The notes beneath the pieces are model-generated. The model was not told the DNA's origin, made no database searches, and worked only from the letters and a program-made list of their open reading frames with translations. Below, in pieces: positions 3,120 to 27,648 of a DNA stretch of 64,000 nt (its first letter is position 1; each line of letters starts with the position of its first letter). Location: NCBI GenBank assembly GCA_958295515.1, contig CATQGW010000001.1:777522-841521 (forward strand), read 5' to 3'. This stretch comes from an uncultured Dehalococcoidia bacterium. GTDB lineage: Bacteria > Chloroflexota > Dehalococcoidia > Bin125. The translations under genes were made by a program, and so were the position numbers.

Positions 3120-3131
3120 GCGGCTGGGCCG

Positions 3132-4816: not shown

Positions 4817-4895
4817 GCGGCGACGTTATGCCACTTGGCGTGGCGCGATCCGCTGGCGATCCGCTAGCCTTGCGCTGAGCTCAGGAACTGGGATT

Positions 4896-7800
4896 ATGCA
4901 TAGGCGCACGATCGACATGGCTGTGAGCAGCGCCGCCGGGCGGTTGCTGCTGCGGCAATTGCGGGGGGGGGGGGGTGTAATGTCCCTCCCTGTCGGCGTG
5001 CTTCGGCCGACTGCGCTGCTGATCGCGTTGATCGGCGTGCTTGCGCTGGTCGGCGTGGCGCTGCGCTCGGAGGCCGTGGCGCAGACCAACAACGTGACCG
5101 TGGAGTTCACCCGCGTCGCCGTCGCTGAGCGCCTCGTGACCGATCGGTACAGCCAGACAGGTCCGTTCTCGCAGAACAACTACGGAATCATCCTGCGGCC
5201 CAACGACCTGACCATCAGCGGGGCAGCCCGAGTGCGGATCAGGTTCAGCGAGACGGTCAGCAGCTTCACGCTGGCGAACCTGACGGCAACCAACGCGACG
5301 CTCTCGAACCTGCAGGTGGAGACGGCCAACCGGCGTTGGACGTTCGACGTGACGCCGACGGCGGACGGCGCGGTCAGCATCAGCATCGCGGCCGGCGCAG
5401 TGAACGCCGCCGCCGATGCGACGCGCGGCAATGCGTCGGCGCAATTGAGCATGACCGCGGCGCTCGCCGCGCCCAAAGTGGTCTGGACCGACTTCACCTC
5501 GGCGACAACCCGGCTACAACGCACGGGGCCATATAGCGCCGGCACCCAGATTGACCTGAAGGTGATCTTCAGCGAGAACGTGACGGTTAGCGGCGTCCCG
5601 ACGGTCGGTCTGCACACGCCCAGCAAGACGCCGGGGTCGAAGACGTACAACGCGTCGTATCACAGCGGCAGCGGGACATCGGTGCTGCTCTTCCGCTACA
5701 CCGTGCCGTCCGGGCAGAGCTGGCTAGCCGGCCGCACCACGATCAATTCGTCGGCGATCAGCCTGCCGTCGAGCACCTCGATCGCCGACGCGTCGGGCAA
5801 CGCGGCGACGCTGACCCTGCCGCCGCGGGTGATCAAGGTGGAGCGGCACTTGCCCGCGCCCGCGCCCGGCGAACGCGCGCCGGCCGGGGTGGTCGGCGAC
5901 TCCCACGACTGGGTGTTCACCTTTAGCGAGCCGGTCACGGTGACGCAGGCGCCCGGCGCCGCAGCGCCGTTCTTCCTGGTCGGCTTTACCCTCCGGACCC
6001 CCATCAGCCCCACCCGCACCCGGGGAAACGCGCCCGCGAACTACCTGGAGGGCAGCGGCACGAACCAGCTCACCTTCCGTTACACGGTGCGAGCCGCCGA
6101 CGGTGTCGCTACCGATTCCAGCTTCGTCCCCGACAGCTATCCGTATATCCGGGTCCCCGACGGCTCAGGCGTCCGCAACGCGGCCGGGATTGACGTCCAC
6201 GGGCGAGTTCGCGAGGTCGTCAACCTCATCACCGCGCGCGAAGGGACACGGTTCGGGCGCTCACTCAGACTCTCGTTCTCGTCGATCCACGACGTCATTG
6301 TCCATCTGACCAGCAGCGATCCGGCGCGGGCGACGATCGAACCCAGTTCGTTCACGTTCTTGAGCAGCAACACCGACGCCGACCACTGGAGTACCCGGCA
6401 ACCCTTCATCGTCACGCTGCACCGCGACGATGATGAGGACGACAACGAAGTCACGATCTCCTACCGCTTCGAGAGCGATCTCACGATCATTGACGGCCGC
6501 ACCGGCACGTACTTCAAATTTCTCCTCCAGGAAGCCTTGCCCGGGGTGCCGACGGAGGTCCCCAGCGACACCCGGTCCGAAGGGACGCGGTTCACGATTC
6601 CATTCGCGCTGACGGAGTCGTTCGAGCAGGATGTGATCGTCCACCTGAGCAGCAGCCCTCCGGGGCGGATGACGTTCGAGCCCAGTTCGGTCAGGTTCCT
6701 GGGCTTCAACACCGACCCAGACCACTGGATGATCCCGCAGACCGTGACGGTTACGCTGCTCCCGGACAGCGATGCCGAAGACGACGAAGTCAGGATCCTC
6801 TACCGCTACGAGAGCGTTGACCCGTCCGTTCACGAGACCGCGGGAACGCTTACGACCTACACCGCCGCGGACAGCGCCAACGCGGAGTACGACGCGGCGA
6901 GTCTCCCCACGGACCTGCGGCTGGAGCTGGGCCTGGTGGAGGACTCCGACAATGTGGTGCCGCCCGGGGTGGAGCGGCGGGTTGCGGCGAAGCTGATCTA
7001 CAGCGGCGGCTACGTACCGCTGCAGGTCTCGGCGGACAGCTGGCTTCGGATCAGCGGCAGCGTGGAGTGGGAAGACCGGGATCGTCGGCGGCTGGACCTC
7101 GCGCGGCAGGAGACTCAGTACCTGGGCGACGCGCCGCCCTGCACGAGCCGCACGATTAACAACGTCGAGACCTGGAGCTGCGATGTGACGGTTGACGCGG
7201 CCCGCTTCGTGGTCGCGCCGGGCACGCCGGACGGAGCATTCACGATCTCCGGCAACATAGTCGTCAATGGTCGCGACTACCCCGTCGAGCTGGATGTGAC
7301 GGTGGGCACGGTCGCTGAGGTGGCCTCGGCGGAGCTGGGCTTCGCGACCGATATCGCGCCGGGCGACTCGACCGACACGCCGACCAACAACAACATCGCC
7401 GATGATCGTCCGTACCCGGACGCGATTGCGGTTGGGGAGAGCACGACGCTGCAGCTGGCGGTGCTCAACGAGCGGGGCACGGCCTCGCATACCGGCGAAA
7501 TCAGCTCGCTCGTTTTCACCACCACGGGCGGGACATTGAGTCTCGCCAACCCGGTGGGCGACTGCGTGGGCGGCGGCGGCAGCAGCTGCCAGGTGCCGGT
7601 CAACCTGCTGACCACCGACAACGCGGACGACATCCGGGTGACGCTCACGCATCCCGGGCTGGAGCAGCTGGGCGCGGGTGTGGTGCGGGCGCTCGTGGTG
7701 TCCAAAGACGGCGACACAGTCAACGCCGATCCGCTCACGGTGACCTTCCTCGGCCCCGCCGAGTCGATCGCGATCGCCGAGCCCGCCACGGCGGTGCTGA

Positions 7801-8762
7801 ACTACGACCCGCCCGCCCCAGACGGCGGCGGCGCAGATGTCCGCGATCTGCTGAAGCTGTCGGTTATCGGGTCCGATGCCAGCGGCCGTACGGTGCCGCT
7901 GACGGCGCCGTTCGGCAGAGTGATTGTCAGGGATCCCGACGGGCGGCTGGTCTGGAACGGCTCGAGCTACGCGGTGCAGAACGGGATGCGGATCGACTGG
8001 CCGCTGCGGGAGCGGGATGATGACGGGGCGCTCGTGGATGGCGACTCCAGCAAGAGCGGGGTTCAGCCGAAATATATCCGCGATGCGGACGGCAATCTGC
8101 AGGTGCAAGTTGATATTGAGGTGGATGAGGCGGCGCAGCTGACGAAGGGGGAGTACACGATCGAGCTGCGCGCCATCGGGGAGACGGCTGAGCAGACCTT
8201 CTCGGTCGGCGGCGAGCCGGCGGAGGTCGCGCTGGGCGAACCGACAGGCTCGACGGAGGACGGCGGGCGGCTGACCGTGACCGCGACGCTGACTGATGCG
8301 GACGGCAACCTGGTGGGGGAGGGGACGCCGGTGCGTTGGGAAGAGGGCAGCGTGGGGTCGCATGTGGTGTTGGTGCAGATCTCCGCTGAGGCGAGGACGA
8401 GCGGCGGCAGCGCGTCGGCGACGTATCTGGTGGTGGGGCGGGGAACGGCCTGGGTGCGGGCGAGTTCGGGGGAGGCGACGGACACGCGGGTGATGTTCAA
8501 CCTGGGCGCGCCGCCTGCGCCAGCTGCGCTGGCCAACCCCGCGGAGTCGCTCAGCAGTCATAGGCCGGGCGCGTTTGCGTCCTGGCTCGGCAGGGGGGCG
8601 ACGAGCGCTTCCGCGCTGCTGGCGGGGCTCGACGGGATTGATTCGATCTCCGTGTGGCGCAATGGCGCTTGGCTGCGCTATGAGGTGGTGGACGGCGCGG
8701 CGGCGGGCGGTGGGGTGGACTTTGAGGTGCGGCGGGGCGAGATCCTGCGTTTGGGCGGCTGA
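4896..8762 (+). CDS. giant secreted/surface repeat protein, paralog 1 (alternative start ATG 4979 immediately after G13 tract)
   Basis: From ATG 4896 the frame runs through a G13 tract (encoding RGGGGV) into MSLPVGVLRPTALLIALIGVLALVGVALRSEAVAQ signal peptide; internal ~100 aa duplicated domain (..HLTSSDPARATIEPSS.../..HLSSSPPGRMTFEPSS...); C-terminal region shared with 11032..14442 and 17972..21658. Confidence 0.7.
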   Translation: MHRRTIDMAVSSAAGRLLLRQLRGGGGVMSLPVGVLRPTALLIALIGVLALVGVALRSEAVAQTNNVTVEFTRVAVAERLVTDRYSQTGPFSQNNYGIILRPNDLTISGAARVRIRFSETVSSFTLANLTATNATLSNLQVETANRRWTFDVTPTADGAVSISIAAGAVNAAADATRGNASAQLSMTAALAAPKVVWTDFTSATTRLQRTGPYSAGTQIDLKVIFSENVTVSGVPTVGLHTPSKTPGSKTYNASYHSGSGTSVLLFRYTVPSGQSWLAGRTTINSSAISLPSSTSIADASGNAATLTLPPRVIKVERHLPAPAPGERAPAGVVGDSHDWVFTFSEPVTVTQAPGAAAPFFLVGFTLRTPISPTRTRGNAPANYLEGSGTNQLTFRYTVRAADGVATDSSFVPDSYPYIRVPDGSGVRNAAGIDVHGRVREVVNLITAREGTRFGRSLRLSFSSIHDVIVHLTSSDPARATIEPSSFTFLSSNTDADHWSTRQPFIVTLHRDDDEDDNEVTISYRFESDLTIIDGRTGTYFKFLLQEALPGVPTEVPSDTRSEGTRFTIPFALTESFEQDVIVHLSSSPPGRMTFEPSSVRFLGFNTDPDHWMIPQTVTVTLLPDSDAEDDEVRILYRYESVDPSVHETAGTLTTYTAADSANAEYDAASLPTDLRLELGLVEDSDNVVPPGVERRVAAKLIYSGGYVPLQVSADSWLRISGSVEWEDRDRRRLDLARQETQYLGDAPPCTSRTINNVETWSCDVTVDAARFVVAPGTPDGAFTISGNIVVNGRDYPVELDVTVGTVAEVASAELGFATDIAPGDSTDTPTNNNIADDRPYPDAIAVGESTTLQLAVLNERGTASHTGEISSLVFTTTGGTLSLANPVGDCVGGGGSSCQVPVNLLTTDNADDIRVTLTHPGLEQLGAGVVRALVVSKDGDTVNADPLTVTFLGPAESIAIAEPATAVLNYDPPAPDGGGADVRDLLKLSVIGSDASGRTVPLTAPFGRVIVRDPDGRLVWNGSSYAVQNGMRIDWPLRERDDDGALVDGDSSKSGVQPKYIRDADGNLQVQVDIEVDEAAQLTKGEYTIELRAIGETAEQTFSVGGEPAEVALGEPTGSTEDGGRLTVTATLTDADGNLVGEGTPVRWEEGSVGSHVVLVQISAEARTSGGSASATYLVVGRGTAWVRASSGEATDTRVMFNLGAPPAPAALANPAESLSSHRPGAFASWLGRGATSASALLAGLDGIDSISVWRNGAWLRYEVVDGAAAGGGVDFEVRRGEILRLGG
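4963..4975 (+). repeat. G13 homopolymeric tract at translation start of giant protein paralog 1
   Basis: 13 consecutive G counted directly (gcaattgc-G13-tgtaATG). Confidence 0.9.
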
Positions 8763-8869
8763 GCTGCCTTCCACCGAGCCTGCCTGAGCTGCGCAAGCCC
8801 TTGCGGGAATCTTTATGATCGCCTTATTGGCTTGCGCGCCCGTTGGGCGTTCCCTGAAGGAGTCTGAAA

Positions 8870-10600
8870 ATGGCGAAGTTCGATGTCCTGATTCGCGGCG
8901 GCACGGTGGTGGATGGCACGCGCGTGCCGAGGTTCCAGGCCGATGTCGGGATTAAGGATGGGCGGATCGCGCAGATTGGCGGGCGGATGGATCCGGCCGA
9001 CGCGGACCAGCTGCTCGAGGCCGAGGGGCTGATCGTCGCGCCCGGCTTCGTGGACCTGCACACGCACTACGACGCGCAGATTCAGTGGGATCCCTACTGC
9101 ACGATCTCGGGCTGGCACGGCGTGACCTCGGTGGTGCTGGGCAACTGCGGCTTCGGCTTCGCGCCGGTGCGCGAGGAGGAGCGGGACCGCGCGATGCTGA
9201 CGATGTCGCGCACGGAGGCGATTCCGTTCGACTCGATGAAGGCGGGGATGCTCTGGGACTGGGTTTCCTTCCCGGAGTGGCTGGACACGCTGGACCGCAT
9301 CCCCAAGGGGGTGAACTGCCTGTCGTACATGCCGATTGCGCCGCTGATGATCTGGGTGATGGGCCTGGAGGCGGCGAAGAATCGGCGGGCGACGGAGGAG
9401 GAAATCCGCGAGATGCAGCGGCTGCTGCACGAGGCGATGGATGCCGGGGCGTGCGGCTGGTCGACGCAGCGGCTGGGCGAGAACTCGGTGCAGGCGGACT
9501 ACGACGGCACGCCGATGGTGACCGACATCATGAGCGACAACGAATGCCTGGCGCTGGCCGAGGTGCTGCGGGATCGGGATGAAGGGTTCATCCAAATCAC
9601 ACAGGCGACGGGCGACATCAAGAGCGATCTGGCGTTCGAGGCGGAGCTGGCGCGCGTGTCGGGCCGCCCGATTCTGCACAACGTGATCGCGCCCAACGCG
9701 CAGCGCCCGGAGTCGCACACCAAGTCGCTCAAGTGGCTGGCCGACTGCAACGCGCGGGGCGAGCGGATTTTCGGCCAGGCCTTCACGATTCGCTCGGCCT
9801 TCGCCTACACGCTTGAGGACTGGAACCTCTACGACTCGTCGCCGGCCTGGAACTACGCGACCACCGGCAGCGTGGAGGAGAAGCAGGCGAAGTTCGCCGA
9901 TCCCGAGGTGCGCGAGCGGCTCAAGGCGGAGATGGACGACGCGATTGAGAAGCTCGGCCAGACGCAGGCGATCGGCGGCTCGATTGAGAAGGTGATGGTC
10001 CAGCATCTCGAGGCCAAGCCGGAGCTTGAGCAGTACGTCGGCCTGACGCTCGCCGAGGTCGGGGAGCGGATGGGCAAGCACCCGATCGACGCGATGCTGG
10101 ACCTGGCGCTGGCGACCGACCTCAAGGCGGAGTTCCTGACCGAGGTGACGAACGCCAACGAGGATCACATGGCGGAAATCGTCGAGTCGCCCTTCACCAT
10201 CCCGGGCGTCTCCGACGGCGGCGCGCACACCAAGTTCCTGACGGCGGGCTCGTACCCGACGGACTTCCTGATCTGGATGGTGCGCGACACGGGGAAGGTG
10301 ACGCTCGAAGAGGCGCACTACCGGCTCTCCTACCTGCCGGCGCGGGCGGGCGGCTTCATCGGTCGCGGCGCGCTGACGGAGGGCGCGCCGGCGGATGTGG
10401 TCGTCTACGACCTCGACGCGCTGAAGCTGGATCCGGAGTTCCAGGGCGAAATCGTGCATGATTTCCCGGCCGGGGAGTGGCGGCGGATTCAGCGCCCGCA
10501 CGGTTACCGCTGGATTCTGGTCAACGGCGAGGTGACGATGCAGGACGGGGAGGAGACGGGCGCGACGCCGGGCAAGTTGCTCCGCCACGGCCGCGCGTAG
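8870..10600 (+). CDS. D-aminoacylase / N-acyl-D-amino-acid deacylase family amidohydrolase, copy 1
   Basis: MAKFDVLIRGGTVVDGTRVP...GRIAQIGG...LIVAPGFVDLHTHYDAQ metal-dependent amidohydrolase signature; AAGGAG SD 8 nt upstream; 576 aa. Confidence 0.8.
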   Translation: MAKFDVLIRGGTVVDGTRVPRFQADVGIKDGRIAQIGGRMDPADADQLLEAEGLIVAPGFVDLHTHYDAQIQWDPYCTISGWHGVTSVVLGNCGFGFAPVREEERDRAMLTMSRTEAIPFDSMKAGMLWDWVSFPEWLDTLDRIPKGVNCLSYMPIAPLMIWVMGLEAAKNRRATEEEIREMQRLLHEAMDAGACGWSTQRLGENSVQADYDGTPMVTDIMSDNECLALAEVLRDRDEGFIQITQATGDIKSDLAFEAELARVSGRPILHNVIAPNAQRPESHTKSLKWLADCNARGERIFGQAFTIRSAFAYTLEDWNLYDSSPAWNYATTGSVEEKQAKFADPEVRERLKAEMDDAIEKLGQTQAIGGSIEKVMVQHLEAKPELEQYVGLTLAEVGERMGKHPIDAMLDLALATDLKAEFLTEVTNANEDHMAEIVESPFTIPGVSDGGAHTKFLTAGSYPTDFLIWMVRDTGKVTLEEAHYRLSYLPARAGGFIGRGALTEGAPADVVVYDLDALKLDPEFQGEIVHDFPAGEWRRIQRPHGYRWILVNGEVTMQDGEETGATPGKLLRHGRA

Positions 10601-10669
10601 CGGCCGCCGCTGCTCGAGCTGGCACATCGCCGCAGCTGGTCTACGCTTCCGCCAAGGGGGAATCTGCTG

Positions 10670-10930
10670 ATGGCTTCGGATAGTTCTGCCGTCGTGCGGC
10701 TCCGCTTCGGTGTCGATCTGCTGCGTGTGGTCAGCGGACGCGCCCGCGAGATCCTCACCGCATCTGGCCAGCGTGAGACCGGTACCGATTTCGACAAGCT
10801 TGATGCCGCGATCCAGGAGATGTTCGGCCAGATCACCGACGAGGAGTGGGAACAGTTGCCGACAGACGGTGCGCGACGCCTCGATTTCTATCTCTATGGC
10901 CGAGAAAAGCCGTCCGCGCGCGACGCATGA
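10670..10930 (+). CDS. small acidic hypothetical protein (86 aa)
   Basis: ORF with AAGGGGG SD-like sequence upstream; no recognised family. Confidence 0.35.
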   Translation: MASDSSAVVRLRFGVDLLRVVSGRAREILTASGQRETGTDFDKLDAAIQEMFGQITDEEWEQLPTDGARRLDFYLYGREKPSARDA

Positions 10931-11031
10931 GAGAGGTGTTTGTCGACGCCGAATTCCGCGATCTCGGCTGCCGCTGCCTCCTACGCGACGACTGAGTCGC
11001 TGCCACCCTCTCCGCCGCCACGTGGTAGCTT

Positions 11032-14000
11032 GTGCGGAGCGGGTTGGGAAGATGCGGATCCATCCAAATGCTTCACAATGTCGTGCGTTTGTGGCCGCGC
11101 TTGCTGGGGCTGGTGGTGTTGGCGGGACTGCTGGGCGTGGCGGTGGTGACCATTTCGCTTGCTCGGGCTGCGCCGCCTGGGGACCTTGCGCTGACGTTGA
11201 GCCTGGTTGAGGACTCCGACAACATTGTGCCGCCGGGCTCGACGCTGCGGGTTGCGGCGACGCTGACGTATAGCAGCGATTACCACGTGTTTTTGGATGT
11301 CCCGCCCAGCGCGCTGCGCATCGCCGGGGATCTGGAGTGGGATTCGTTGGGGCGTCGCGCGCACCCCTTGACGCGCCAGGGGCACCTGGGCGGACGAGTG
11401 GGATGGGAAGACATCGCAGTGCAGGCGGATCCTGCGGGCGACATCGCTGTGTTCGGGATGTCTTGGGACTCCGGTATATGCTGCGTGGGATCCGCGGATA
11501 TCTACGTGGGTGGCGCGTTTGCGGCGCATTTTTCAGGCGCAGGACCACGGGCCAACCTATTTGGCCACAGCGTTGATGTCGGCGGAGGTGTGATTGTCAT
11601 CGGCGCGCCTGACGGAGAAAACGGCGCAGCGTATGTGTTTGAGCGCAACGCGGCCGGCGTCTGGACCGAGGTTGCCGAACTCACGCCTGGTTCCAACCCT
11701 GCGTACACGGATCCTGCAACTCAGGATAAGCCGCGGTGGTTCGGCCTCGGCGTCGCGATCAGCGACGACGGGAGCACGATCGTTATCAGCAAAGTCCCTT
11801 CACCGGGCTTGGGCGTGGCGCACAATTGGGGCGCGACCGGGCATGTGTTCACCAGGCCCGCCGGCGGTTGGCGCGATATGGACACCAATCACCCGAGTGT
11901 GACTGCGCTGCGATACCACGACGTCGGCGACGGCAACACCGACCCCGACGACATGTTCAGCATCGCGTCACGCAATGACGCATACGGCGATGCGGACATC
12001 GCCGGCAACGGTTCGGTGGTCGCGCTGGGCGGATATCCCCTGCCGCGCACTGCGGATGCGGCCGACCAGCAGGGCGCGGTGCTGATCTTCCGTCGTCCGG
12101 CGGGCGGTTGGGCCGACGCCGGCGGAGCCGATGGCATGCTGGAGCAGGATGCGGTGCTGACGGCGACGGATGACGACAGCAACAACATTCGGCTCGGTCG
12201 GGCGATTGCGATCAATGTTGATGGCAGCGTGGTGCTGGCAGGCGCCCGCGGCACGGTCGGGACGTCACTTGGATCCCTCAGCTGGCCGGGCTCGGCGTTT
12301 GTCTGGGTGCAGCCCGCGACTGGCTGGGCCGATACGAACGATGCAACGGCGACGTTGAGCGATTCGACCGCGAACAACGAAGATCAGTTTGCTGACCACG
12401 TTGCCATCAGCGACTCGGGCGATCGGATCATCGTGTCCGACAGCGGCAGCCGTGCGGCGCATGTGTTCGATAAGCCTGCGCTCGGTTGGCAGGACGACGC
12501 GTCGGCCGACTTGCTGCTTACCTCGCCGAAACCGACCTCGTTGGATCCGGAAGTTGGGACGTTGGGGGTGGGCTTCGGTGGCCACACGGCGTTGGATGGA
12601 GAGTCGACGGCGATCGTTGGGCAGCTGGTGTGGCAGCTGTCAGTCCTCCGCAGTCACGCTGGCGGCTTCGCGTTCGATCTCGCCGCTGCCGACCCGCAGG
12701 CGGGCGCTGAGCGTCTGTTCCCCTGCACATCCAGGAGCGCTGATGGTCTGACTACTTGGACCTGTTCCGTCTACGTCGGCGATACTTCGATCACGATTCC
12801 GCTGGGGACGCCTGACGGGACGTTTACGATTTCTGGCGTGCTTACTGTGGACGGCGTGGAGTACAGCGATGCGCTGGAAGTTACGATCGACGAGGTCAAT
12901 GAAGTGACTGAGGTGCAGTTCAACTTTGCTGAGTATGAGAGCGGGCTGAAGCAGGGCGAGCGGTATCCGGGCGCGATTGCGGCTGGGGAGACTACGCGGC
13001 TGCGGTTGGGTGTGCTGAATGAGCATGGGAAAGCCTCTGCCGGGGGTAGCATTGCTTCGGTGCTGTTTACGACCACCGCGGGCTCGCTGAGCACGAGCAT
13101 CGGCGGCGGCTGCATGGGCGGTGGGGGGTTGGTTTGCCAGATTCCGGTGTCGGCGCTGACGGCGGCGAACGCCGACAAGATCGACCTGACCGTTGCGCAC
13201 CCCGGGCAGGGGAGCTCCGGCGTCGCCGAAATCCGCGCCACCGTACTGGCTGTCGACGGGGAGACCTTTAACGCCGATCCCTTACGAGTGACGTTGACCG
13301 GCGAGGCTGCGTTGCTGGCGATCAGCGAACCGGCGACCAGCGTGTTGAATGTGCATACTGAGGACTTCGGCGCGGAGCGGGATGACCGCGACATGCTGAC
13401 GCTGACGGTCAGGGCGACGGACGAAGAGGGGCGGAAGGCGGCTGTGCCGACGCATTCGCGGCGCGTGGTGATCACGGGTCCCGACGGTCGCCGGGTTGAT
13501 GTGGGAGACATCCCATCCTCACCCGCGTCGGAACACGCGGTGATCGCGGTCTGGCCCAAGGTGCGGGTGACGTTTGCGCCGCACCTCGGCGCTTCGAGAA
13601 CCGCTGCGGAGCTGCTGGGCAACTATGACGTCGTCAACAAGTGGTCCCTCGGCGGCAGCTGGCAGTGGTACAGCGTTGACGCGAACGGCGATCCTGCGCG
13701 CGGGGCGACCAACTTCGTCGCCAATCAGGGCGACGTACTGCGCTTCGACGATCTCGTTCTGGACGCCGACGGCAACCTGCAGGTGGAGCTCGATGTGGAC
13801 GCCGGCCGCGCGAACCCGCTGACGCCCGGCGAGTACACGCTCGAGCTGCGCGCCGGGGCGCTGACTGCGCGACGCAGCTTCAGCGTGGTCGGGGATGCCG
13901 CCGCGCTGACGCTCAGCGAAGCGACAGGCTCGACGGAGGACGGCGGGCGGCTTTCCCTGACCGCGACGCTGACCGACGGGGACGGTAATACCGTGGCGGA

Positions 14001-14442
14001 CGGCACGCCGGTTGTCTGGGAAGAGGGCAACACGGCGGCGCAGGTGGTGCTGGTGCAGCTCTCTGTTGAGGCGAAGACGACCGATGGCCGCGCCTCGGCG
14101 ACGTATCTGGTCGTCGGGCGGGGGAGCGCCTGGGTGCGGGCGAGTTCAGGCGAGGCGGGCGATACGCGGGTGATGTTCAATCTCGGCGCGCCGCCGCCGC
14201 CGCCCGCGCCTGCCAACCCTGCGGAGTCGCTCAGCAGCCGCACGCCGGGCGCGTTCGCGGCTTGGCTCGGAGTCGGCGCGACGAGCGCGTCGGCGCTGCT
14301 GGCGGGGCTGGACGGGATCGACTCGATTGCTGTGTGGCGCGATGGGGTCTGGCTGCGCTATGAGGTGGTGGGCGGCGCAGCGGCGGGCGGCGCGGTGGAC
14401 TTTGAGGTGCGGCGCGGCGAGATCGTGCGTTTGGGCGGCTGA
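11032..14442 (+). CDS. giant secreted/surface protein, paralog 3, with FG-GAP-like repeats (probable true start at ATG 11068, MLHNVVRLWPRLLGLVVLAGLLGVAVV)
   Basis: N-terminal hydrophobic signal; FG-GAP-like motifs (NLFGHSVDVGGGVIVIGAPDGENGAAYVFE, RWFGLGVAISDDGSTIVIS, RLGRAIAINVDGSVVLAG); C-terminal ~600 aa colinear with other two paralogs ending ...VDFEVRRGEIVRLGG. Confidence 0.7.
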   Translation: MRSGLGRCGSIQMLHNVVRLWPRLLGLVVLAGLLGVAVVTISLARAAPPGDLALTLSLVEDSDNIVPPGSTLRVAATLTYSSDYHVFLDVPPSALRIAGDLEWDSLGRRAHPLTRQGHLGGRVGWEDIAVQADPAGDIAVFGMSWDSGICCVGSADIYVGGAFAAHFSGAGPRANLFGHSVDVGGGVIVIGAPDGENGAAYVFERNAAGVWTEVAELTPGSNPAYTDPATQDKPRWFGLGVAISDDGSTIVISKVPSPGLGVAHNWGATGHVFTRPAGGWRDMDTNHPSVTALRYHDVGDGNTDPDDMFSIASRNDAYGDADIAGNGSVVALGGYPLPRTADAADQQGAVLIFRRPAGGWADAGGADGMLEQDAVLTATDDDSNNIRLGRAIAINVDGSVVLAGARGTVGTSLGSLSWPGSAFVWVQPATGWADTNDATATLSDSTANNEDQFADHVAISDSGDRIIVSDSGSRAAHVFDKPALGWQDDASADLLLTSPKPTSLDPEVGTLGVGFGGHTALDGESTAIVGQLVWQLSVLRSHAGGFAFDLAAADPQAGAERLFPCTSRSADGLTTWTCSVYVGDTSITIPLGTPDGTFTISGVLTVDGVEYSDALEVTIDEVNEVTEVQFNFAEYESGLKQGERYPGAIAAGETTRLRLGVLNEHGKASAGGSIASVLFTTTAGSLSTSIGGGCMGGGGLVCQIPVSALTAANADKIDLTVAHPGQGSSGVAEIRATVLAVDGETFNADPLRVTLTGEAALLAISEPATSVLNVHTEDFGAERDDRDMLTLTVRATDEEGRKAAVPTHSRRVVITGPDGRRVDVGDIPSSPASEHAVIAVWPKVRVTFAPHLGASRTAAELLGNYDVVNKWSLGGSWQWYSVDANGDPARGATNFVANQGDVLRFDDLVLDADGNLQVELDVDAGRANPLTPGEYTLELRAGALTARRSFSVVGDAAALTLSEATGSTEDGGRLSLTATLTDGDGNTVADGTPVVWEEGNTAAQVVLVQLSVEAKTTDGRASATYLVVGRGSAWVRASSGEAGDTRVMFNLGAPPPPPAPANPAESLSSRTPGAFAAWLGVGATSASALLAGLDGIDSIAVWRDGVWLRYEVVGGAAAGGAVDFEVRRGEIVRLGG

Positions 14443-14541
14443 GCTGCTTCCCCATCGTCCTGCAAACTCGTTTTGCAATCTCTATCTTTTGCGCATTCCG
14501 GTTGGACGCCCGCGCGGCGCGGGTCGGCAAGGAGCGCTGAG

Positions 14542-16272
14542 ATGGCCAAGTTTGATGTTCTGATTCGCGGCGGCACGGTTGTGGATGGCACTCGCGTGCC
14601 GAAATTCAAGGCCGATGTCGGGATTGCGGATGGGCGGATCGCCCAGGTGGGCGGCAAGATGGATCCGGCCGATGCGGAGCAGTTGCTTGAGGCGGAGGGG
14701 CTGATCGTCGCGCCCGGCTTCGTGGACCTGCACACTCACTACGACGCGCAGATTCAGTGGGATCCGTACTGCACGATCTCCGGCTGGCATGGGGTCACGT
14801 CGGTGGTGCTGGGCAACTGCGGCTTCGGCTTCGCGCCGGTGCGCGAGGAGGAGCGCGACCGGGCGATGCTGACGATGTCGCGCACCGAAGCGATTCCCTT
14901 CGACTCGATGCAGGCGGGGATGATCTGGGACTGGGTTTCGTTCCCGGAGTGGCTGGACACGCTGGATCGCATCCCCAAGGGGGTGAACTGCCTGTCGTAC
15001 ATGCCGCTCGCGCCGCTGATGACGTGGGTGATGGGTCTGGAGGCGGCGAAGAGCCGTCGCGCCAACGACGGCGAGATTGCGGAGATGCAGCGGCTGCTCG
15101 GCGAGGCGATGGACGCAGGGGCGTGCGGCTGGTCGACGCAGCGGCTGGGCGAGAACTCGGTGCAGGCGGACTACGACGGCACGCCGATGGTGACCGACAT
15201 CATGAGCGATAACGAGTGTCTGGCGCTGGCGGAGGTGCTCGCCGAGCGCGACGAGGGCTTCATCCAGATCACGCAGTTCACCGGCGATCTCGACGCGGAC
15301 CTGGAGTTTCAGTCGCGCCTGGCGGCGGCTGCGCGGCGTCCGATTCTGCACAATCTGATCGCGGTGAGCCGCGAGAACGCCGATGTGCATCGCAACCGCA
15401 TGCGGTGGCTTGAGGAGTGCAACGCGCGGGGGGAGCCGATCTTCGGCCAGGCGGCGACGATTCGCGCGGCGTTCACCTTCACGCTCGAGGACTGGAATCT
15501 CTACGACTCGTCGCCGGCCTGGAACTACGCCACGACCGGCACGCGCGAGGAGAAGCTGGAGAAGTTCGCCGACGCCGGGGTGCGCGCCAACATCAGGGCG
15601 GAGATCGACGAGGCGATCAAGAAACTCGGTCAGACCCAGGCGCTGGGCGGGCCGATTGAGGAGCTGCTGATCCAGGATCTGGCGCACAAGCCCGAGTTGG
15701 AGGAATACGTGGGGATGACCGTGGGGCAGGTCGCCGAAGCGCGCGGCGTTCACGCCGTCGATGCGATGCTCGATCTGGCGCTCGAGACCGACCTTGCGGC
15801 CGAGTTCCTGACGCCGATGCGCGAGCAGAACGACGAGTGGACGGCGGAGATGATGTCCTCGCCCTATGTGGTGCCGGGCGTCTCCGACGGGGGCGCGCAC
15901 ACGAAGTTCCTGACGGCCGGCTCCTACCCGACCGATTTCCTGATCTGGCTGGTGCGGGATACGCAGCGGCTGACGCTGGAGGAGGCGCACTACCGGCTCT
16001 CCTACCTGCCGGCCCGTGCGGCGGGTTTCCGGGACCGCGGCGCGATTATCGAGGGCGCGCCGGCCGATGTGGTCGTCTACGACCTCGACGGGCTGAAGAT
16101 CACGCCGGAGTGGACGGGCGAGGTTGTCCACGACTTCCCGGCGGGGGAGTGGCGGCGGGTGCAGCGTCCGGACGGCTATCGCTGGATTCTGGTCAATGGG
16201 GAGGTGACGTTCGAGGACGGCAAGGAGACGGGCGCGACGCCGGGCAAGCTGCTCCGCCACGGCCGCGGCTAG
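14542..16272 (+). CDS. D-aminoacylase family amidohydrolase, copy 2
   Basis: MAKFDVLIRGGTVVDGTRVPKFKADVGIADGRIAQVGG... about 85% identical to 8870..10600; AAGGAG SD. Confidence 0.8.
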   Translation: MAKFDVLIRGGTVVDGTRVPKFKADVGIADGRIAQVGGKMDPADAEQLLEAEGLIVAPGFVDLHTHYDAQIQWDPYCTISGWHGVTSVVLGNCGFGFAPVREEERDRAMLTMSRTEAIPFDSMQAGMIWDWVSFPEWLDTLDRIPKGVNCLSYMPLAPLMTWVMGLEAAKSRRANDGEIAEMQRLLGEAMDAGACGWSTQRLGENSVQADYDGTPMVTDIMSDNECLALAEVLAERDEGFIQITQFTGDLDADLEFQSRLAAAARRPILHNLIAVSRENADVHRNRMRWLEECNARGEPIFGQAATIRAAFTFTLEDWNLYDSSPAWNYATTGTREEKLEKFADAGVRANIRAEIDEAIKKLGQTQALGGPIEELLIQDLAHKPELEEYVGMTVGQVAEARGVHAVDAMLDLALETDLAAEFLTPMREQNDEWTAEMMSSPYVVPGVSDGGAHTKFLTAGSYPTDFLIWLVRDTQRLTLEEAHYRLSYLPARAAGFRDRGAIIEGAPADVVVYDLDGLKITPEWTGEVVHDFPAGEWRRVQRPDGYRWILVNGEVTFEDGKETGATPGKLLRHGRG

Positions 16273-16343
16273 GGATCGCTCCACCCGCTCCGGCTCTTGC
16301 ACGAATCCCCGCCGCAAGGCGGGGGTTCGGGTACCGTACAGAA

Positions 16344-17168
16344 ATGGATCCGCCCAGCAAGAGCGCGCTCAATCGCCTCGGTAGTCGGCTGAGAAAATCT
16401 GATCCGCCCTCGGCGGAAGATCGGGAGGTTTACCGCGAGTACGCGGCCACGTTTCTTCCTCCGCTCAATGAGGCGATCGAGGCGGTCGTCGAGAACTCCG
16501 GGTCTGTGAACTTGGCCGAGCTCGGGGCGCGAATCAAGAAATTCGAGTCAGTCGTCGCCAAGCTCCGTCGTCAGCCAACGAAGTTAGCCAGCATTGAGGA
16601 CATCGGTGGATGTCGTCTGGTTGTGCTCACGCTGGGAGACATTGAAGATGTTCATCAGTCCTTGGATCGGACATTGAACATCGTGCGGTTCCGCGATTAC
16701 CGCGAGGATGCCCACGATGGCTATCGGGCAGTCCATCTGGTTGCGCAAATGACGCCAAGACACCGCATCGAGATCCAGATTCGGACCGAACTTCAGAACG
16801 AGTGGGCCAACCTCTCCGAGCACTTGTTCCAAAGGGTTGACCCGGAGATCAAATACGGTGGCGGGCCACGAGGCGTTCGTCAGAGGCTTGATGCGCTGTC
16901 GGACGAGGGGTGGGAGCTGGATCGTCTGAGACAACGTCTGGCTGATGGGGACCTAGACTACCGCACGCTACGCCAGGCCGCGTTGTCCTCAGCGAGATTT
17001 GGCGTGGAGTGGAACGCTGAGATGATGGAGAGAGTGAGACACGTTGAGCAAGAGATGGGGCGGATCTTTGAACAGCTAAACATCTCGCTCGGCGATTTTC
17101 GCGCTAGAATAGATGCGCTGAGGCACGATGGGAGTTTGACCGATGAAGCACTTCGTCCTCCTCTATGA
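16344..17168 (+). CDS. RelA/SpoT-domain (alarmone synthetase-like) protein, small stand-alone; toxSAS-like candidate
   Basis: DIGGCRLVVLTLGD...DGYRAVHLVAQ...IEIQIRTELQNEWA matches RelA/SpoT synthetase core (D-x-G-x-R, GYxSxH, EIQIRT..W); 275 aa; 3' end overlaps next gene by 26 nt. Confidence 0.7.
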   Translation: MDPPSKSALNRLGSRLRKSDPPSAEDREVYREYAATFLPPLNEAIEAVVENSGSVNLAELGARIKKFESVVAKLRRQPTKLASIEDIGGCRLVVLTLGDIEDVHQSLDRTLNIVRFRDYREDAHDGYRAVHLVAQMTPRHRIEIQIRTELQNEWANLSEHLFQRVDPEIKYGGGPRGVRQRLDALSDEGWELDRLRQRLADGDLDYRTLRQAALSSARFGVEWNAEMMERVRHVEQEMGRIFEQLNISLGDFRARIDALRHDGSLTDEALRPPL

Positions 17169-17451
17169 CCACCTGACCCACGAGGTACAACTGGACGAGT
17201 TCACCGACCAAGGCGCTGCGTTGGATGCGCTTCGCACAGCAGAGTTGGCGCTGAAACCACACAAAGAAGTCGTGCTTTTTCTGGCAGAGTCGGAGAGAGC
17301 GTTGAAGATCACGCACTCCTCGTATTTCAGCAACGGACGCGGCAACGGCGCGACACAGGATGCGCCCGTCGATCTCGAATCACTCACGAGATTGGTCGAG
17401 CGAGCTGAGTCCGATTTGCAGAGTGCGCACGATGCGCTCGCGGCCAGATAG
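17143..17451 (+). CDS. small acidic protein (102 aa) overlapping 3' end of RelA/SpoT gene; candidate antitoxin-like partner
   Basis: MKHFVLLYDHLTHEVQLDEFTD...EVVLFLAESERALKITHSSYF; start inside upstream gene; paralog at 17610..17861. Confidence 0.5.
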   Translation: MKHFVLLYDHLTHEVQLDEFTDQGAALDALRTAELALKPHKEVVLFLAESERALKITHSSYFSNGRGNGATQDAPVDLESLTRLVERAESDLQSAHDALAAR

Positions 17452-17609
17452 ATGAACAAACCTGGCAGAATGCGCTCGCGCTGTTTCCGCACTGCCCATG
17501 ATCTCGGCTCAGGCGACGAGGGGTCCCGCAGCCACCGGTCTGAGCGGCTCAAAGATGCGTTCATCGCCCGCTTGAGCGCGATGGGCCTTGTGGGACGGGA
17601 GGACGAATC

Positions 17610-17861
17610 ATGAAGTGGATTTTGCTGCACTGCGACCACGACACCGACGAGGTGACGCTGACTGAGTTTGACCGCGAAGACTCCGACGCGGCGATCGCCG
17701 CGCTCAACGCGGCTGAGCGGGGCAAGCGGCCGCAGGACGAAGTTGTGCTCTTCTTCTCCGAAGGTGAAGAGTCGCTCCGCCGCACCCACTCCCGCTATTT
17801 CTACGATGAGCGCGAAATTGCCGAGCAGCTCCGCAAGACGCTCGCCGCTATCCGCCGCTAG
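17610..17861 (+). CDS. small acidic protein (83 aa), paralog of 17143..17451
   Basis: MKWILLHCDHDTDEVTLTEFDRED...EVVLFFSEGEESLRRTHSRYFYDE; same motif set as upstream paralog. Confidence 0.5.
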   Translation: MKWILLHCDHDTDEVTLTEFDREDSDAAIAALNAAERGKRPQDEVVLFFSEGEESLRRTHSRYFYDEREIAEQLRKTLAAIRR

Positions 17862-17956
17862 CCTTACGCTGGGCTCGGGAATTGGGACTATGCGTAGGGG
17901 CACGATGGACATGGCTGTGAGTAGGGCTGCCGGGCGGTTGCTGCTGCGGCAATTGC

Positions 17957-17969
17957 GGGGGGGGGGGGG
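17957..17969 (+). repeat. G13 homopolymeric tract at translation start of giant protein paralog 2
   Basis: 13 consecutive G (gcaattgc-G13-taATG); upstream conserved leader ORF from ATG 17890 is out of frame with the main ORF at this tract length. Confidence 0.9.
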
Positions 17970-17971
17970 TA

Positions 17972-20900
17972 ATGCGCCTCTGGCGGCGCGTGTTTCGGCC
18001 GACTGCGCTGCTGATTGCGTTGATCGGCGTGCTCGCGCTCGGCGGCGTGGCGCTGCGCTCGGAGGTTGCCGCGCAGACCAACGACGTGACCGTGGAGTTC
18101 ACCCGCGTCGCCCACATGAAGCGAAACCAGATCCATGGCTTCCTCCAAGGCACCACCACGCGTCCGAACGACCTGGCCATCAGCGGGGCAGTCCGAGTGC
18201 ACATCAGGTTCAGCGAGGAGGTCAGCGGCTTCACGCTGGCGAGCCTGACGGCGAGCAACGCGACGCTCTCGAACTTGCACATGCGGCAGACCAACTGGCG
18301 TTGGACGTTCAGCGTGACGCCGACGGCGGACGGCGCGGTCAGCATCAGCATCGCGGCGGGCGCGGTGCAGGCCGCCGCCGACGCGACGCGCGGGAATGCG
18401 TCGGGGCAATTGAGCATGACCGCCGCGCTCGGCGCGCCCAAAGTGATCTGGGCCGACCTCACCACCTCGGGGTCAACCTGGCAACGCCATAGGCAGCGGT
18501 ACAGCGCCGGCACCCGGATTGACCTGACGGTGATCTTCAGCGAGTACGTGACGGTCAGCGGCGTCCCGACGGTCGGTCTGCACACGACCAGCAAGCCGGC
18601 GCCCAAGGCGTACGATGTGCCGTTTGCCGCAAGCGACGGGTCGGTGCTGCTCTTCAGCTACACCGTGCCGGCCGGGCAGAACTGGTCCCGCGGCTGGACC
18701 ACGATCACTTCGTCGGCGATCAGCCTGCCGTCGAGCGCCTCGATCACCGACGCGGATGGCAACGCGGCGACGCTGACCCTGCCGCCGCGGGTGATCGAGG
18801 CCGAGCGGCTCTTGGCCATGCCCGCGCCCGGCGAACGCGGGCCGCAAGGCGTGGTCGGCGACTCCCACGACTGGACGATCACCTTTAGCGAGCCGGTCAC
18901 GGTGACTCAGGCGCCCGGCGCCGAAGCGCCGTGGATCGCGATCAGAGCCACCCTCCAGGACGGCAACTCGGGAACGGTGCGCGCGAACTACCTGGAAGGC
19001 AGCGGCACGGATACGCTCACCTTCCGTTACACGGTGCGCGCCGCCGACAACGTCGCTACCGATGCCAGCTATGGCTTCGACAGCGCACGGTATGTCCGCG
19101 TCCCCGACGGCGCAGGCGTCCGCAACGCGGCGGGGCTTGATGTCAGCGGGCGATTTGCCACTGCCGCCAACGTCGCCATCCAGCGCGAAGGGACGCAGTC
19201 CGTGCGCGGAGCCAGACTCTCGTTCTCGTCGGTCCACGACGTCACCTTCCACCTGACCAGCAGCGATCCGGACCGGCTGACGATCGAACCCAGTTCGCTC
19301 ACGTTCTTGAGCAGAAACACCGACGCCGACCACTGGAGGACCTGGCAGGCCGTCACCTACACGGCGCACAGTGACGATGATGAGGAAACCAACGAAGTCA
19401 CGGTCTCCTACCGCTTCGAGAGCGATTACACGGCCATCGACGGCCTCACCGGCAGGTACCTCCTGTTTCGCATCCAGGAAGCCGCAGTCGGGGCGCCGAC
19501 GGAGGTCCCGAGCGGCACCCGGTCCGAAGGGACGCGGTTCACGATTCCATTCGCGCTGACGGAGCCGTTGGAGCAGGATGTGATCGTCCACCTGAGCAGC
19601 AGCGATCCGGCGCGGATGACGTTCGAGCCCAGCGCGGTCAGGTTCCTGGGTACCAACACCGACCCCGACCACTGGATGATCCCGCAGACCGTGACCGTTA
19701 CGCTGCTCCCCGACAGCGATGGCGAAGACGACGAAGTCATGGTTCTCTACCGCTACGAGAGCGTTGACCCGCCCGTTCACGGCACCGAGGGAACGCTCGC
19801 GACATACACCGCCGCGGACAGCGCCAACGCGGACTACGACGCGGCGAGTCTCCCGGCGGACCTGCGGCTGGAGCTGGGGCTGGTCGAGGATTCCGACCAG
19901 ATTGTTCCGCCCGGGGGCGAGCGGAAGGTTGCGGTGAAGCTGATCTACAGCGGCGGCTACGTACCGCTGCAGGTCTCGGCGGACAGCTGGCTACGGATCA
20001 GCGGCAGCGTGGAGTGGGAGGACCGAGATCGGCGGCGGCTCGGTCTCGCGCGGCAGGAGACTCAGTACCTGGGCAGCGCGCCGCCCTGCCAGAGCAGCAC
20101 GATCGACACAGTCGAGACCTGGAGCTGCGATGTGCTGATCGACGCCGCGCGCTTCGTGGTGCCGCCGGGCACGCCCGACGGAGCATTCACGATCTCCGGC
20201 AACATAGTCGTCAATGGTCGCGACTACCCCGGCGAGCTGGAGGTGACGGTGGGCACGGTCGATGAGGTCGCCTCGGCCGAGCTGGACTTTGCGACCGATA
20301 CCGCTGATGATCGTCCGTATCCCGACGCGATTGCGGTTGGTGAGAGCACGACGCTGCAGTTGGCGGTGCTGAACGAGCACGACAAGGCCTCGCATACCGG
20401 CGAAATCAGCTCGCTCGTGTTCACCACCACGGGCGGGGCATTGAGTCTCGCCCACCCGGTGGGCGAGTGCGTGGGCGGGGGCGGCAGCAGCTGCCAGGTG
20501 CCGGTGGATCTGCTGACGACCGACAACACGGACCAGGTGCGGGTGACGCTCACGCATCCCGGGCTGGAGCAGCTGGGCGCGGGTATCGTGCGTGCGCTCG
20601 TGGTGTCCAAAGACGGCGACACCATCAACGCCGATCCGCTCACGGTGACCTTCCTCGGCCCCGCCGAGTCGATCATGATTGGCGAACCTGCCACGGCAGT
20701 ACTTAACTACGACCCGCCGGAGCGGGACGGCGGCGGCGAAGATGTCCGCGATCTGCTGAAGCTGTCGGTCATCGGGTCCGATGACAGCGGCCGCACGGTG
20801 CCGCTGACGGCGCCGTTCGGCAGAGTGATCGTTAGAGCCCCGGATGGCATGGTTGTCTGGAGCGGCTCGAGCTATGAGGTGCAGAACGGGATGCGGATCG

Positions 20901-21658
20901 ACTGGCCGCTGCGCGAGCGGGACGATGACGGGGCGCTCGTGGACGGCGACTCCAGCAAGAGCGGGATTCAGCCGAAATATATCCGCGATGCGGACGGCAA
21001 CCTCCAGGTGCAAATCGATATTGAGGCGGACGAGGCATCGCAGCTGACGAAGGGTGACTACACGATCGAGCTGCGCGCTATCGGGGAGACGGCCGAGCAG
21101 ACCTTCTCGGTCGGCGGCGCGCCGGCGGAGATTGCGCTGAGCGAACCGGGAGGCTCAACGGAAGACGGCGGGCGGCTGACCGTGACGGCGAGATTGACCG
21201 ACAGGGACGGCAACCCGGTGGGGGACGGGACGCCGGTTCGCTGGCAAGAGGGCAGCGTGGGGTCGCATGTGGTGTTGGTGCAGATCTCTGCTGAGTCGAG
21301 GACCAGCGGCGGCAGCGCGTCGGCGACGTATCTGGTGGTTGGGCGGGGCACCGCTTGGGTGCGGGCGAGCTCAGGCGAGGCGGCGGACACGCGGGTGATG
21401 TTCAACCTCGGAGTGCCGCCGCCGCCGCCTAACCCTGCGGAGCAGCTCAGCAGCCGTCGGCCCGGCGCGTTCGCGGCCTGGCTCGGCAGGGGCGCGACGA
21501 GCGCGTCGGAGCTGTTGGCGGGGCTTGACGGGATCGACTCGATCACCGTTTGGCGCGACGGGGGCTGGCTGCGCTATGAGGTGGTGGACGGTGCAGCGGC
21601 ATCCGGTGGGGTGGACTTTGAGGTGCGGCGGGGCGAGATCGTGCGTCTGGGCGGCTGA
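17972..21658 (+). CDS. giant secreted/surface repeat protein, paralog 2
   Basis: MRLWRRVFRPTALLIALIGVLALGGVALRSEVAAQ signal peptide; colinear with paralog 1 throughout including duplicated ~100 aa domain and C-terminal ...VDFEVRRGEIVRLGG. Confidence 0.75.
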   Translation: MRLWRRVFRPTALLIALIGVLALGGVALRSEVAAQTNDVTVEFTRVAHMKRNQIHGFLQGTTTRPNDLAISGAVRVHIRFSEEVSGFTLASLTASNATLSNLHMRQTNWRWTFSVTPTADGAVSISIAAGAVQAAADATRGNASGQLSMTAALGAPKVIWADLTTSGSTWQRHRQRYSAGTRIDLTVIFSEYVTVSGVPTVGLHTTSKPAPKAYDVPFAASDGSVLLFSYTVPAGQNWSRGWTTITSSAISLPSSASITDADGNAATLTLPPRVIEAERLLAMPAPGERGPQGVVGDSHDWTITFSEPVTVTQAPGAEAPWIAIRATLQDGNSGTVRANYLEGSGTDTLTFRYTVRAADNVATDASYGFDSARYVRVPDGAGVRNAAGLDVSGRFATAANVAIQREGTQSVRGARLSFSSVHDVTFHLTSSDPDRLTIEPSSLTFLSRNTDADHWRTWQAVTYTAHSDDDEETNEVTVSYRFESDYTAIDGLTGRYLLFRIQEAAVGAPTEVPSGTRSEGTRFTIPFALTEPLEQDVIVHLSSSDPARMTFEPSAVRFLGTNTDPDHWMIPQTVTVTLLPDSDGEDDEVMVLYRYESVDPPVHGTEGTLATYTAADSANADYDAASLPADLRLELGLVEDSDQIVPPGGERKVAVKLIYSGGYVPLQVSADSWLRISGSVEWEDRDRRRLGLARQETQYLGSAPPCQSSTIDTVETWSCDVLIDAARFVVPPGTPDGAFTISGNIVVNGRDYPGELEVTVGTVDEVASAELDFATDTADDRPYPDAIAVGESTTLQLAVLNEHDKASHTGEISSLVFTTTGGALSLAHPVGECVGGGGSSCQVPVDLLTTDNTDQVRVTLTHPGLEQLGAGIVRALVVSKDGDTINADPLTVTFLGPAESIMIGEPATAVLNYDPPERDGGGEDVRDLLKLSVIGSDDSGRTVPLTAPFGRVIVRAPDGMVVWSGSSYEVQNGMRIDWPLRERDDDGALVDGDSSKSGIQPKYIRDADGNLQVQIDIEADEASQLTKGDYTIELRAIGETAEQTFSVGGAPAEIALSEPGGSTEDGGRLTVTARLTDRDGNPVGDGTPVRWQEGSVGSHVVLVQISAESRTSGGSASATYLVVGRGTAWVRASSGEAADTRVMFNLGVPPPPPNPAEQLSSRRPGAFAAWLGRGATSASELLAGLDGIDSITVWRDGGWLRYEVVDGAAASGGVDFEVRRGEIVRLGG

Positions 21659-21689
21659 GCGAGAGGCCGGCTACGCCGAGTTCTGAGCC

Positions 21690-27582: not shown

Positions 27583-27648
27583 GTATCCACCTCCGCCTGT
27601 GAGCCTATCGCCAGACACGCTGGAATCGTTGGCGGAGAGGCGGGCCGG

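Follow-up and report, generated by a model that had tools for sequence, protein, structure and literature searches.

The stretch of DNA analysed here, 64,000 nucleotides from an uncultured Dehalococcoidia bacterium (contig CATQGW010000001.1, positions 777,522 to 841,521; the whole stretch is referred to below as the window), carries three long plus-strand genes whose products are each predicted to be secreted and to carry a variable head at the N terminus and a constant stalk at the C terminus. Paralog 1 (P1) occupies positions 4896..8762 and encodes 1288 amino acids (aa) from an ATG at 4896, with an alternative start at 4980 that would give a standard signal peptide; paralog 2 (P2) lies at 11032..14442 (1136 aa), and paralog 3 (P3), a whole-gene duplicate of P1, at 17972..21658 (1228 aa). 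The genes stand exactly where a preliminary description of this DNA had placed them, and all three open reading frames (ORFs), defined together with their translations, lie in frame with a G+C content at third codon positions (GC3) of 0.78-0.86, as real genes show. By BLASTP, full-length identity between P1 and P3 is 78%, whereas the 51% identity of P2 to either of them is confined to the last 575-586 aa (E 1e-139 to 1e-154), apart from an additional 71-aa match between P2 aa 46-116 and P1 aa 668-738. The colinear C-terminal region that the preliminary description had noticed in all three proteins therefore exists, and measures about 620 aa by alignment.

This constant module was delimited by alignment and with an AlphaFold2 model, and spans 6912..8759 in P1 and 19859..21655 in P3. 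It starts at the motif DLxLxLxLVEDSD (P1 aa 673) and consists of four beta-sandwich domains (D1, which holds a C-x12-C pair, then D2, D3 and a Big_1-like domain), a short Pro-rich linker and an alpha/beta end domain of about 75 aa, which we call the tail. The Cys-bracketed loop C(V/M)GGGG..C is found at 7563-7589 in P1 (as CVGGGGSSC, in D2), at 13111-13137 in P2 and at 20468-20494 in P3, and a second pair, PC-x12-C, and the short Pro-rich stretch are likewise present in all three proteins; the motifs listed in the preliminary description, among them a similar terminal segment, were thus recovered in each. The tail corresponds to the last 78 aa, at 8526..8759 in P1, 14206..14439 in P2 (located by BLAST, profile scan and motif coordinates) and 21422-21655 in P3; the three copies share 85-86% pairwise identity and end in ...RLGG, and a tblastn search returned exactly three tail copies in the window.

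AlphaFold2 modelling of the C-terminal 541 aa of P1, on an alignment with 26 homologues (mean pLDDT 82), gave a string of beta-sandwiches followed by a small alpha/beta unit, and the tail modelled alone (80 aa, 32 sequences; pLDDT 88, pTM 0.76) folded as helix-strand-helix-strand-strand-strand. When the 541-aa model was compared with the PDB using Foldseek, the surface-layer (S-layer) proteins Sap and SbsC came first, with E values of 2e-9 to 2e-7, followed by filamin and adhesins; since the TM-scores for Sap and SbsC were only 0.15-0.28 and the identities 12-14%, the likeness is probably the generic resemblance of one Ig-like string to another. The hidden Markov model (HMM) of the penultimate domain also matches N-terminal repeats of homologues, where Pfam scores Big_1 (PF02369), although in P1, P2 and P3 themselves the Pfam Big_1 model finds no match at E <= 0.1. 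The tail alone matched nothing in Pfam, NCBIfam, PDB sequences or viral models and fits neither a known family nor a known fold, and four of its aromatic residues (W46, W51, Y54 and F68 in the numbering of tail alignment A4) are invariant or nearly so. A divergent internal copy of the tail is inserted in D3 of P2 (13573..13746, aa 848-905; hmmsearch E 2e-4); an equivalent insertion is present in eight P2-like orthologues, and these D3 insertions align to the tail profile with an hhalign probability of 97.8% (E 9e-13). The module had been described beforehand as unrecognised, and that judgement stands after comparison with Pfam, NCBIfam and the PDB; together with its end domain it amounts to a new domain family of DUF grade in proteins of a familiar type, namely paralogous surface proteins in which a constant module carries variable heads.

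The heads were assigned in the preliminary description as Ig-like in paralogs 1 and 2 and FG-GAP in paralog 3, an assignment that Pfam corrects. At E <= 0.1, Pfam recognises only Big_12 or FG-GAP_2 in the three proteins: one Big_12 domain (PF19078) in each of P1 (aa 98-181, 46.7 bits) and P3 (49.8 bits) against a cutoff of 27, and FG-GAP_2 (PF14312) in P2 at 31.2 bits against a cutoff of 23, the P2 orthologue P0025 reaching 53 bits. In P1 the head (5082..6911) contains, according to Pfam and to repeats within its DNA, further Ig-like domains besides Big_12 and two tandem repeats of about 110 aa. P1 and P3 would therefore display an Ig-like array and P2 a beta-propeller, a fold predicted from the approximately 6-7 repeats that can be read from the sequence at 11380..12720. 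This FG-GAP region of about 450 aa interrupts module domain D1 between its halves: the pieces that flank it (P2 aa 46-116 and aa 564 onward) align to P1 segments that follow closely upon each other (aa 668-738 and 748 onward).

Each protein opens with a hydrophobic segment resembling a signal peptide. In P1 this reads MSLPVGVLRPTALLIALIGVLALVGVALRSEAVA|Q (4980..5081), the bar marking the predicted cleavage site, and the Kyte-Doolittle hydropathy (15-aa window) peaks there at 3.0 at aa 42; the C-terminal ends have no hydrophobic stretch, and the same combination of a signal-like N terminus with no C-terminal hydrophobic segment is found in 112 of the 167 homologues that start with Met. P1 and P3 contain four cysteines each, all of them in the two conserved pairs, and cysteines that occur only in pairs are typical of extracytoplasmic proteins. 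The signal-like N termini, the exclusive use of beta-sandwich and propeller domains and the paired cysteines support the view that P1, P2 and P3 are paralogous, probably secreted, surface-type proteins that are not enzymes.

The module is not a peculiarity of this genome. A word-indexed search with it found 24 proteins, and a HMMER search of 1.84 billion cluster representatives with the tail profile found 427 at E <= 1e-3 and 307 at E <= 1e-10, so that the tail is conserved well outside the organism in which it was noticed. It also matches no known anchoring family. A local scan detected the tail (E < 0.01) in 172 of 173 fetched proteins, and in 171 of these it ends no more than five residues from the C terminus, the exception being P0144, which has only partial, repeated matches. 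All 22 loci taken from species-representative genomes belong to Dehalococcoidia metagenome-assembled genomes (MAGs), with at least 2-7 copies per genome, and the complete D1-D2-D3-Big_1-tail module is present at every one of the 20 full loci. Homologues range from 600 to 1700 aa and have very different heads, yet in 51 diverse representatives these heads contained Ig, FN3, FG-GAP, MG2, PKD or Y_Y_Y domains only and no enzymes. Matches of 77-138 aa raised the possibility of stand-alone tail proteins, which was rejected: inspection of the upstream ORFs at two loci (L026 and L027) showed that the tail-only calls there overlap the preceding ORF and are fragments of a large, frameshifted gene. An origin in phages or plasmids was likewise discarded, as tblastn with the module gave no match among 50,697 phage and 72,556 plasmid records. 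On this distribution, the stalk is a lineage-specific module present as several paralogs per genome.

The preliminary description had proposed that the terminal domain might be a novel sorting or anchoring signal, and the sorting part of that proposal is not supported. The last 120 aa of the three proteins contain neither a hydrophobic helix nor a basic tail (19-aa Kyte-Doolittle maximum 0.8-1.5). Whole-protein scans with Pfam and NCBIfam found no LPXTG, CTERM-type, SLH or T9SS (type IX secretion system) model, and the translations themselves show neither the combination of an LPXTG-like motif with a helix and basic tail nor the architecture of PEP-CTERM, PGF-CTERM or GlyGly-CTERM signals, ending as they do in ...RLGG without a transmembrane helix. 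SLH repeats (PF00395) are absent from P1, P2 and P3 in the Pfam scan, and the Por_Secre_tail and type B C-terminal domain (CTD) models match neither the whole proteins nor the tail alone. The window holds no sortase- or exosortase-like gene. Wherever the tail occurs, one and the same Big_1-like domain stands directly before it, usually together with D3 and D2. Because the upstream domains are constant, the heads free of enzymes, a further copy internal to P2 and the window without a sortase, we conclude that the tail is a folded, fixed component of a single protein family and not a promiscuous or peptide-type signal.

The three genes would have arisen by local duplication, with P1 and P3 as a whole-gene pair (DNA self-comparison aligns 4861-8764 with 17855-21660 at 85% identity). 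Immediately 5' of the P3 start, at 17890-17982, another reading frame encodes a 77% match to P1 aa 1-31, so that P3 is frameshifted relative to P1 and uses a downstream ATG, with its signal peptide retained. The relationship between P1 and P2 is of a different kind and involves the genes that follow them. Amidohydrolase 1 (8870..10600, plus strand) and amidohydrolase 2 (14473..16272, plus strand, with a probable true start at the ATG at 14542) both reach the Amidohydro_3 superfamily in Pfam, with 74.7 and 82.7 bits across the two copies, and are 79% identical in amino acid and 80% in nucleotide sequence; they had been described as near-identical D-aminoacylase genes, one behind paralog 1 and one behind paralog 3. 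Neither the closeness nor the enzyme name is borne out: a specific D-aminoacylase model is not reached, and the best NCBIfam match, to the amidohydrolase family PRK09061, stands at 80-83 bits against a cutoff of 340. As to position, the first copy does follow P1, but the second follows P2, because DNA self-comparison pairs 8082-10595 with 13762-16267; the 3' neighbour of P3 is a convergent carboxyl-transferase gene and no amidohydrolase. The duplicated unit proposed earlier is thus real, as a segment of 2.5 kb comprising the last 226 codons of P1, a spacer and the amidohydrolase, but it links loci 1 and 2 and not 1 and 3; its copies are 80% identical over 2528 bp (blastn) and start inside the surface-protein gene.

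Substitution rates, estimated by the Nei-Gojobori method, agree with this history and separate head from module. Synonymous divergence is the same for the final 226 codons of P1 and P2 as for the two whole amidohydrolase genes (dS 0.48 in each case; ratio of non-synonymous to synonymous rates, dN/dS, 0.36 and 0.30 respectively), whereas dS between P1 and P2 in the module upstream of the breakpoint is about 1.2. Because the gene ends and the amidohydrolases are equally diverged, a single, later 2.5-kb duplication or gene conversion with its breakpoint inside the gene would account for both, making the ends of P1 and P2 alike and carrying an unrelated enzyme gene along as a passenger. A functional link between surface protein and amidohydrolase was considered and set aside: amidohydrolase 1 is a cytoplasmic-type gene, and its closest orthologue, with 94% amino acid identity in the Dehalococcoidia MAG OZ251529.1, has no tail-family gene directly upstream.

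Between P1 and P3, the head (aa <= 640) has a dN/dS of 1.17 (dS 0.16), rising to 1.6-2.0 (dS 0.10-0.18) where P1 aa 238-544 (window 5600-6530) is compared with P3 aa 202-501, while for the module the ratio is 0.25 (0.12-0.6 within it; dS 0.27). The excess of non-synonymous change over aa 238-544 has a Fisher p of 0.006 and the contrast between head and module a Fisher p of 1e-13; codon bias may inflate the absolute ratios but cannot account for that contrast. These ratios show apparent purifying selection on the module and not on the heads, and indicate that aa 238-544 of the head are probably under diversifying or strongly relaxed selection.

We propose that each of the three proteins would be exported by the Sec pathway, that the stalk, with its four beta-sandwiches (two of them disulfide-clamped), Pro-rich linker and alpha/beta end domain, would lie close to the cell, and that the end domain, docked either to some partner in the envelope or to adjacent copies of the protein, would provide a non-covalent hold on the envelope, leaving the heads to face outward and diversify. 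That the constant module is cell-proximal and its end domain mediates non-covalent attachment to, or assembly at, the envelope we regard as having about an even chance of being right; it is suggested by the lack of any other anchor in the proteins, by the opposition between a constant stalk and variable heads, and by the nature of cultured SAR202 cells, which are monoderm, encode no peptidoglycan synthesis and bear an S-layer-like outer layer (PMC10444878). In cells free of peptidoglycan, attachment through protein-protein or protein-membrane contacts is plausible.

The proposed logic, in which a constant part attaches and a variable part is displayed, is that of the cell wall proteins (CWPs) of C. 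difficile, with their three CWB2 repeats, and of the SLH-domain proteins of Bacillus, which are likewise secreted paralogs with one conserved non-enzymatic module and an otherwise variable sequence. The parallel does not extend to sequence or fold: neither SLH nor CWB2 is matched in P1, P2 or P3, and the module is C-terminal and built of Ig-like domains and a small alpha/beta domain. The small alpha/beta domains RCK and TrkA_C are also among the closest known systems.

Several observations weigh against attachment through the tail. Among close relatives, conservation of the tail (45%) does not exceed that of the remaining module domains (43-46%). Some homogenisation of tails within genomes might be expected if the tail co-evolved with a genome-specific receptor, but none was found beyond that of the other module domains, and concerted evolution of tails was rejected on the same ground. 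ORF clustering at the 22 loci identified no conserved partner gene adjoining this subfamily. In intimin and invasin rods a small C-terminal domain is the ligand-binding tip and not the anchor, so that the orientation could be the reverse of the one proposed. Finally, the peptidoglycan-free state is documented for cultured SAR202, and the present organism may differ, one permease in the window even having a LysM domain.

The strongest alternative to attachment through the end domain is that the family itself supplies subunits, or alternative subunits, for an S-layer-like coat, with the module, tail included, making the lattice contacts or driving oligomerisation. The best structural matches of the module are to S-layer proteins (Sap, 9g93; SbsC, 4uj6 and 5ftx), other S-layer protein families likewise comprise several paralogs with a module in common, and the S-layer-like layer of marine Dehalococcoidia is built of a poorly defined protein (PMC10444878, PMC11994032). 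Sap of B. anthracis and SbsC of Geobacillus are indeed elongated strings of Ig-like domains, but they are anchored through N-terminal SLH domains or domains that bind secondary cell wall polymers (SCWPs), and matches with TM-scores below 0.3 are of the generic Ig-string kind; moreover, divergent paralogs within one genome, of 600-1700 aa and with unlike heads, better suit accessory surface proteins. We consider a role as coat subunit rather unlikely.

More doubtful still is the possibility that these are released or loosely attached proteins that bind particles, polymers or cells, in which the C-terminal domain would be the ligand-binding tip, for example for glycans, as in invasin and intimin. 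The nearly invariant aromatics of the tail, the Big_1-like rod and the lack of a recognisable anchor anywhere in the protein are all compatible with this idea, and the Big_1 rods of intimin and invasin resemble the module in being beta-sandwich strings that end in a small, distinct domain. Those proteins, however, are held by an N-terminal outer-membrane barrel and bind their receptor at the C terminus, while P1, P2 and P3 belong to a monoderm host and start with nothing more than a cleavable signal peptide, so that no N-terminal anchor is left after cleavage. In addition, variability and rapid evolution are found in the N-terminal head, ligands are usually bound by FG-GAP propellers and Ig arrays, and a constant tip on variable bases would be unusual.

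Least probable of all, and in our view very improbable, is a genuine sorting signal that dedicated machinery would recognise, and perhaps cleave, in the manner of a T9SS CTD, a sortase or an exosortase substrate: its extreme C-terminal position, its several paralogs in each genome, its lack of known relatives and the precedent of the T9SS CTD (Por_Secre_tail), which is likewise folded, measures about 75-80 aa and closes large, secreted, multi-domain proteins in many copies per genome, speak for it, but against these stand the missing tripartite motif, the internal copy in P2-type proteins, a window without a sortase-like gene, an alpha/beta fold with two helices in place of a beta-sandwich, the lack of an HMM match, the restriction to enzyme-free proteins of one architecture in place of diverse cargo, a host in the Chloroflexota and not the diderm Bacteroidota, whose monoderm lineage makes an outer-membrane translocation step needless (PMC10444878), and the occurrence in related genomes of genuinely signal-like C termini (GSGGL, transmembrane helix, RRxR) on other proteins.

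Such C termini came to light next to a large sister subfamily of shorter proteins (600-750 aa). It accounts for 103 of the 170 proteins fetched; every one of the 103 terminates in ISN, most of them in ...ILYISN. Tail-family genes of the ILYISN type are each followed by a gene of about 200 codons at loci L024 (12049-12645), L025 (12030-12638 and 14099-14701) and L027 (5496-5927), and twice in a tandem array at L026 (5357-5953 and 8046-8645). Its product has a signal peptide, a small beta domain, an acidic spacer rich in D, E, S and M and a C terminus made of YPGTGSGGLA, a transmembrane helix and RRVRNRA (the basic end is RRVRxRA in general, and KVRGRV in the 14099-14701 copy); the only NCBIfam match, to the GVDTG_CTERM sorting domain, is below threshold. 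This C terminus has the look of a sorting signal, of a kind recognised by no known model, and in the ILYISN subfamily the membrane-anchored neighbour is a candidate for the partner to which the tail docks. Two tandem proteins of about 630 aa at locus L013 (17527-19476 and 19589-21460; OZ241913), which have no NCBIfam match, similarly end in G(S/T)GGLL, a transmembrane helix and RRR. No equivalent of the 200-aa neighbour or of its C terminus is present in the window.

Near tail-family genes, ORF clustering returned just one family of coiled-coil proteins, grouped from 6 loci, and an intergenic element that is not a gene, neither of which was accepted as a conserved partner. The coiled-coil family lies within about 1 kb of tail-family genes at seven loci (L009, L013, L015, L017, L021, L023 and L025), and its member in the window (23439-24335, minus strand) has tandem repeats of the AETQKDLAEM type and a single C-terminal transmembrane helix, and is tail-anchored and CCDC90-like, a topology which suggests that the coiled coil is cytoplasmic. 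The intergenic element is repeated in related Dehalococcoidia genomes (L010 7429-7833; L011 7503-7907; L012 12262-12723; L015 12781-13209; L020 12020-12884 and 17119-17703) and mimics a conserved small ORF, being translated as RRDTRGKRGYDG or AGMTEVA.

The surface-protein genes of the window are interleaved with genes of defence type. Upstream of P1 are two tandem paralogs that combine a helix-turn-helix (HTH) domain with an M78 (IrrE-like) peptidase (2001-3119 and 3695-4816, both on the plus strand), which match the PADLOC model PD-Lambda-2_B with E values of 3e-28 and 4e-36 and have 3' ends 81% identical in DNA (2696-3124 vs 4393-4821). A 121-bp direct repeat, 98% identical between 1518-1638 and 3130-3250, flanks the first of them, one copy lying inside the 5' end of a leuA-like gene (1-1644, minus strand); it may have been left behind by an insertion or duplication. 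The interval that separates the P2 unit from P3 contains a small gene with a RelA/SpoT domain (16344-17168, plus strand; Pfam E 2e-17) that matches the N-terminal part of the PADLOC candidate PDC-S33 (E 2e-30), followed on the same strand by two small paralogous ORFs of 102 aa (17143-17451) and 83 aa (17610-17861), the latter matching the C-terminal part of the same profile (E 1e-7); from these matches, 16344-17861 looks like a split toxin-antitoxin or defence module of toxSAS type.

Envelope-type genes are also present just downstream of the surface-protein genes: next to the coiled-coil gene, two paralogous minus-strand genes (24364-25947 and 26089-27843) score 40 and 116 bits against the NCBIfam Hvo_1808 family of haloarchaeal surface proteins, whose cutoff is 200; the second product has an HExxH motif and a lipoprotein-like N terminus. 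A further run of defence- or mobile-type genes (28199-39876) includes an HEPN_Swt1-like gene (29819-30943), a DUF5131 gene that matches PADLOC PDC-M41B and PDC-M30B (32608-33621) and two DNA methyltransferase genes (34950-36392 and 38905-39876). The window has a G+C content of about 67%, with dips to about 0.62 at 2-4, 16-18 and 34-36 kb, the last of them within this run. Its far end is occupied by a peptide-type ABC transporter locus (52296-64000) with four SBP_bac_5 genes (52296-55196, 58108-60174, 60152-62245 and 62223 to the end of the window), of which the last three are tandem paralogs with about 79% mutual identity, the first sharing about 72% with them. The permease with an N-terminal LysM domain is the first one of this locus (55279-56805). 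We infer that the region may be a variable genomic island, a setting that would suit rapidly evolving, exposed heads.

Little is understood about the envelope of the Dehalococcoidia, that of the abundant marine SAR202 included; cells of the marine lineages are monoderm and without peptidoglycan, and their protein coat is ill defined. That the module and its 75-aa end domain represent an undescribed mode of attachment or a building block of that coat, with heads diversifying in a defence-rich island under pressure from phages or grazers, is a tentative idea which we hold to be somewhat unlikely. The practical value of the family, with its predicted function, would be modest ahead of results on localisation or binding; the tail and domains D1-D3 nevertheless lie outside Pfam and NCBIfam, and defining them would improve the annotation of these genomes. 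A large family (at least 427 clusters) specific to this lineage is a concrete candidate both for building or decorating the surface of these bacteria and for their recognition by phages.

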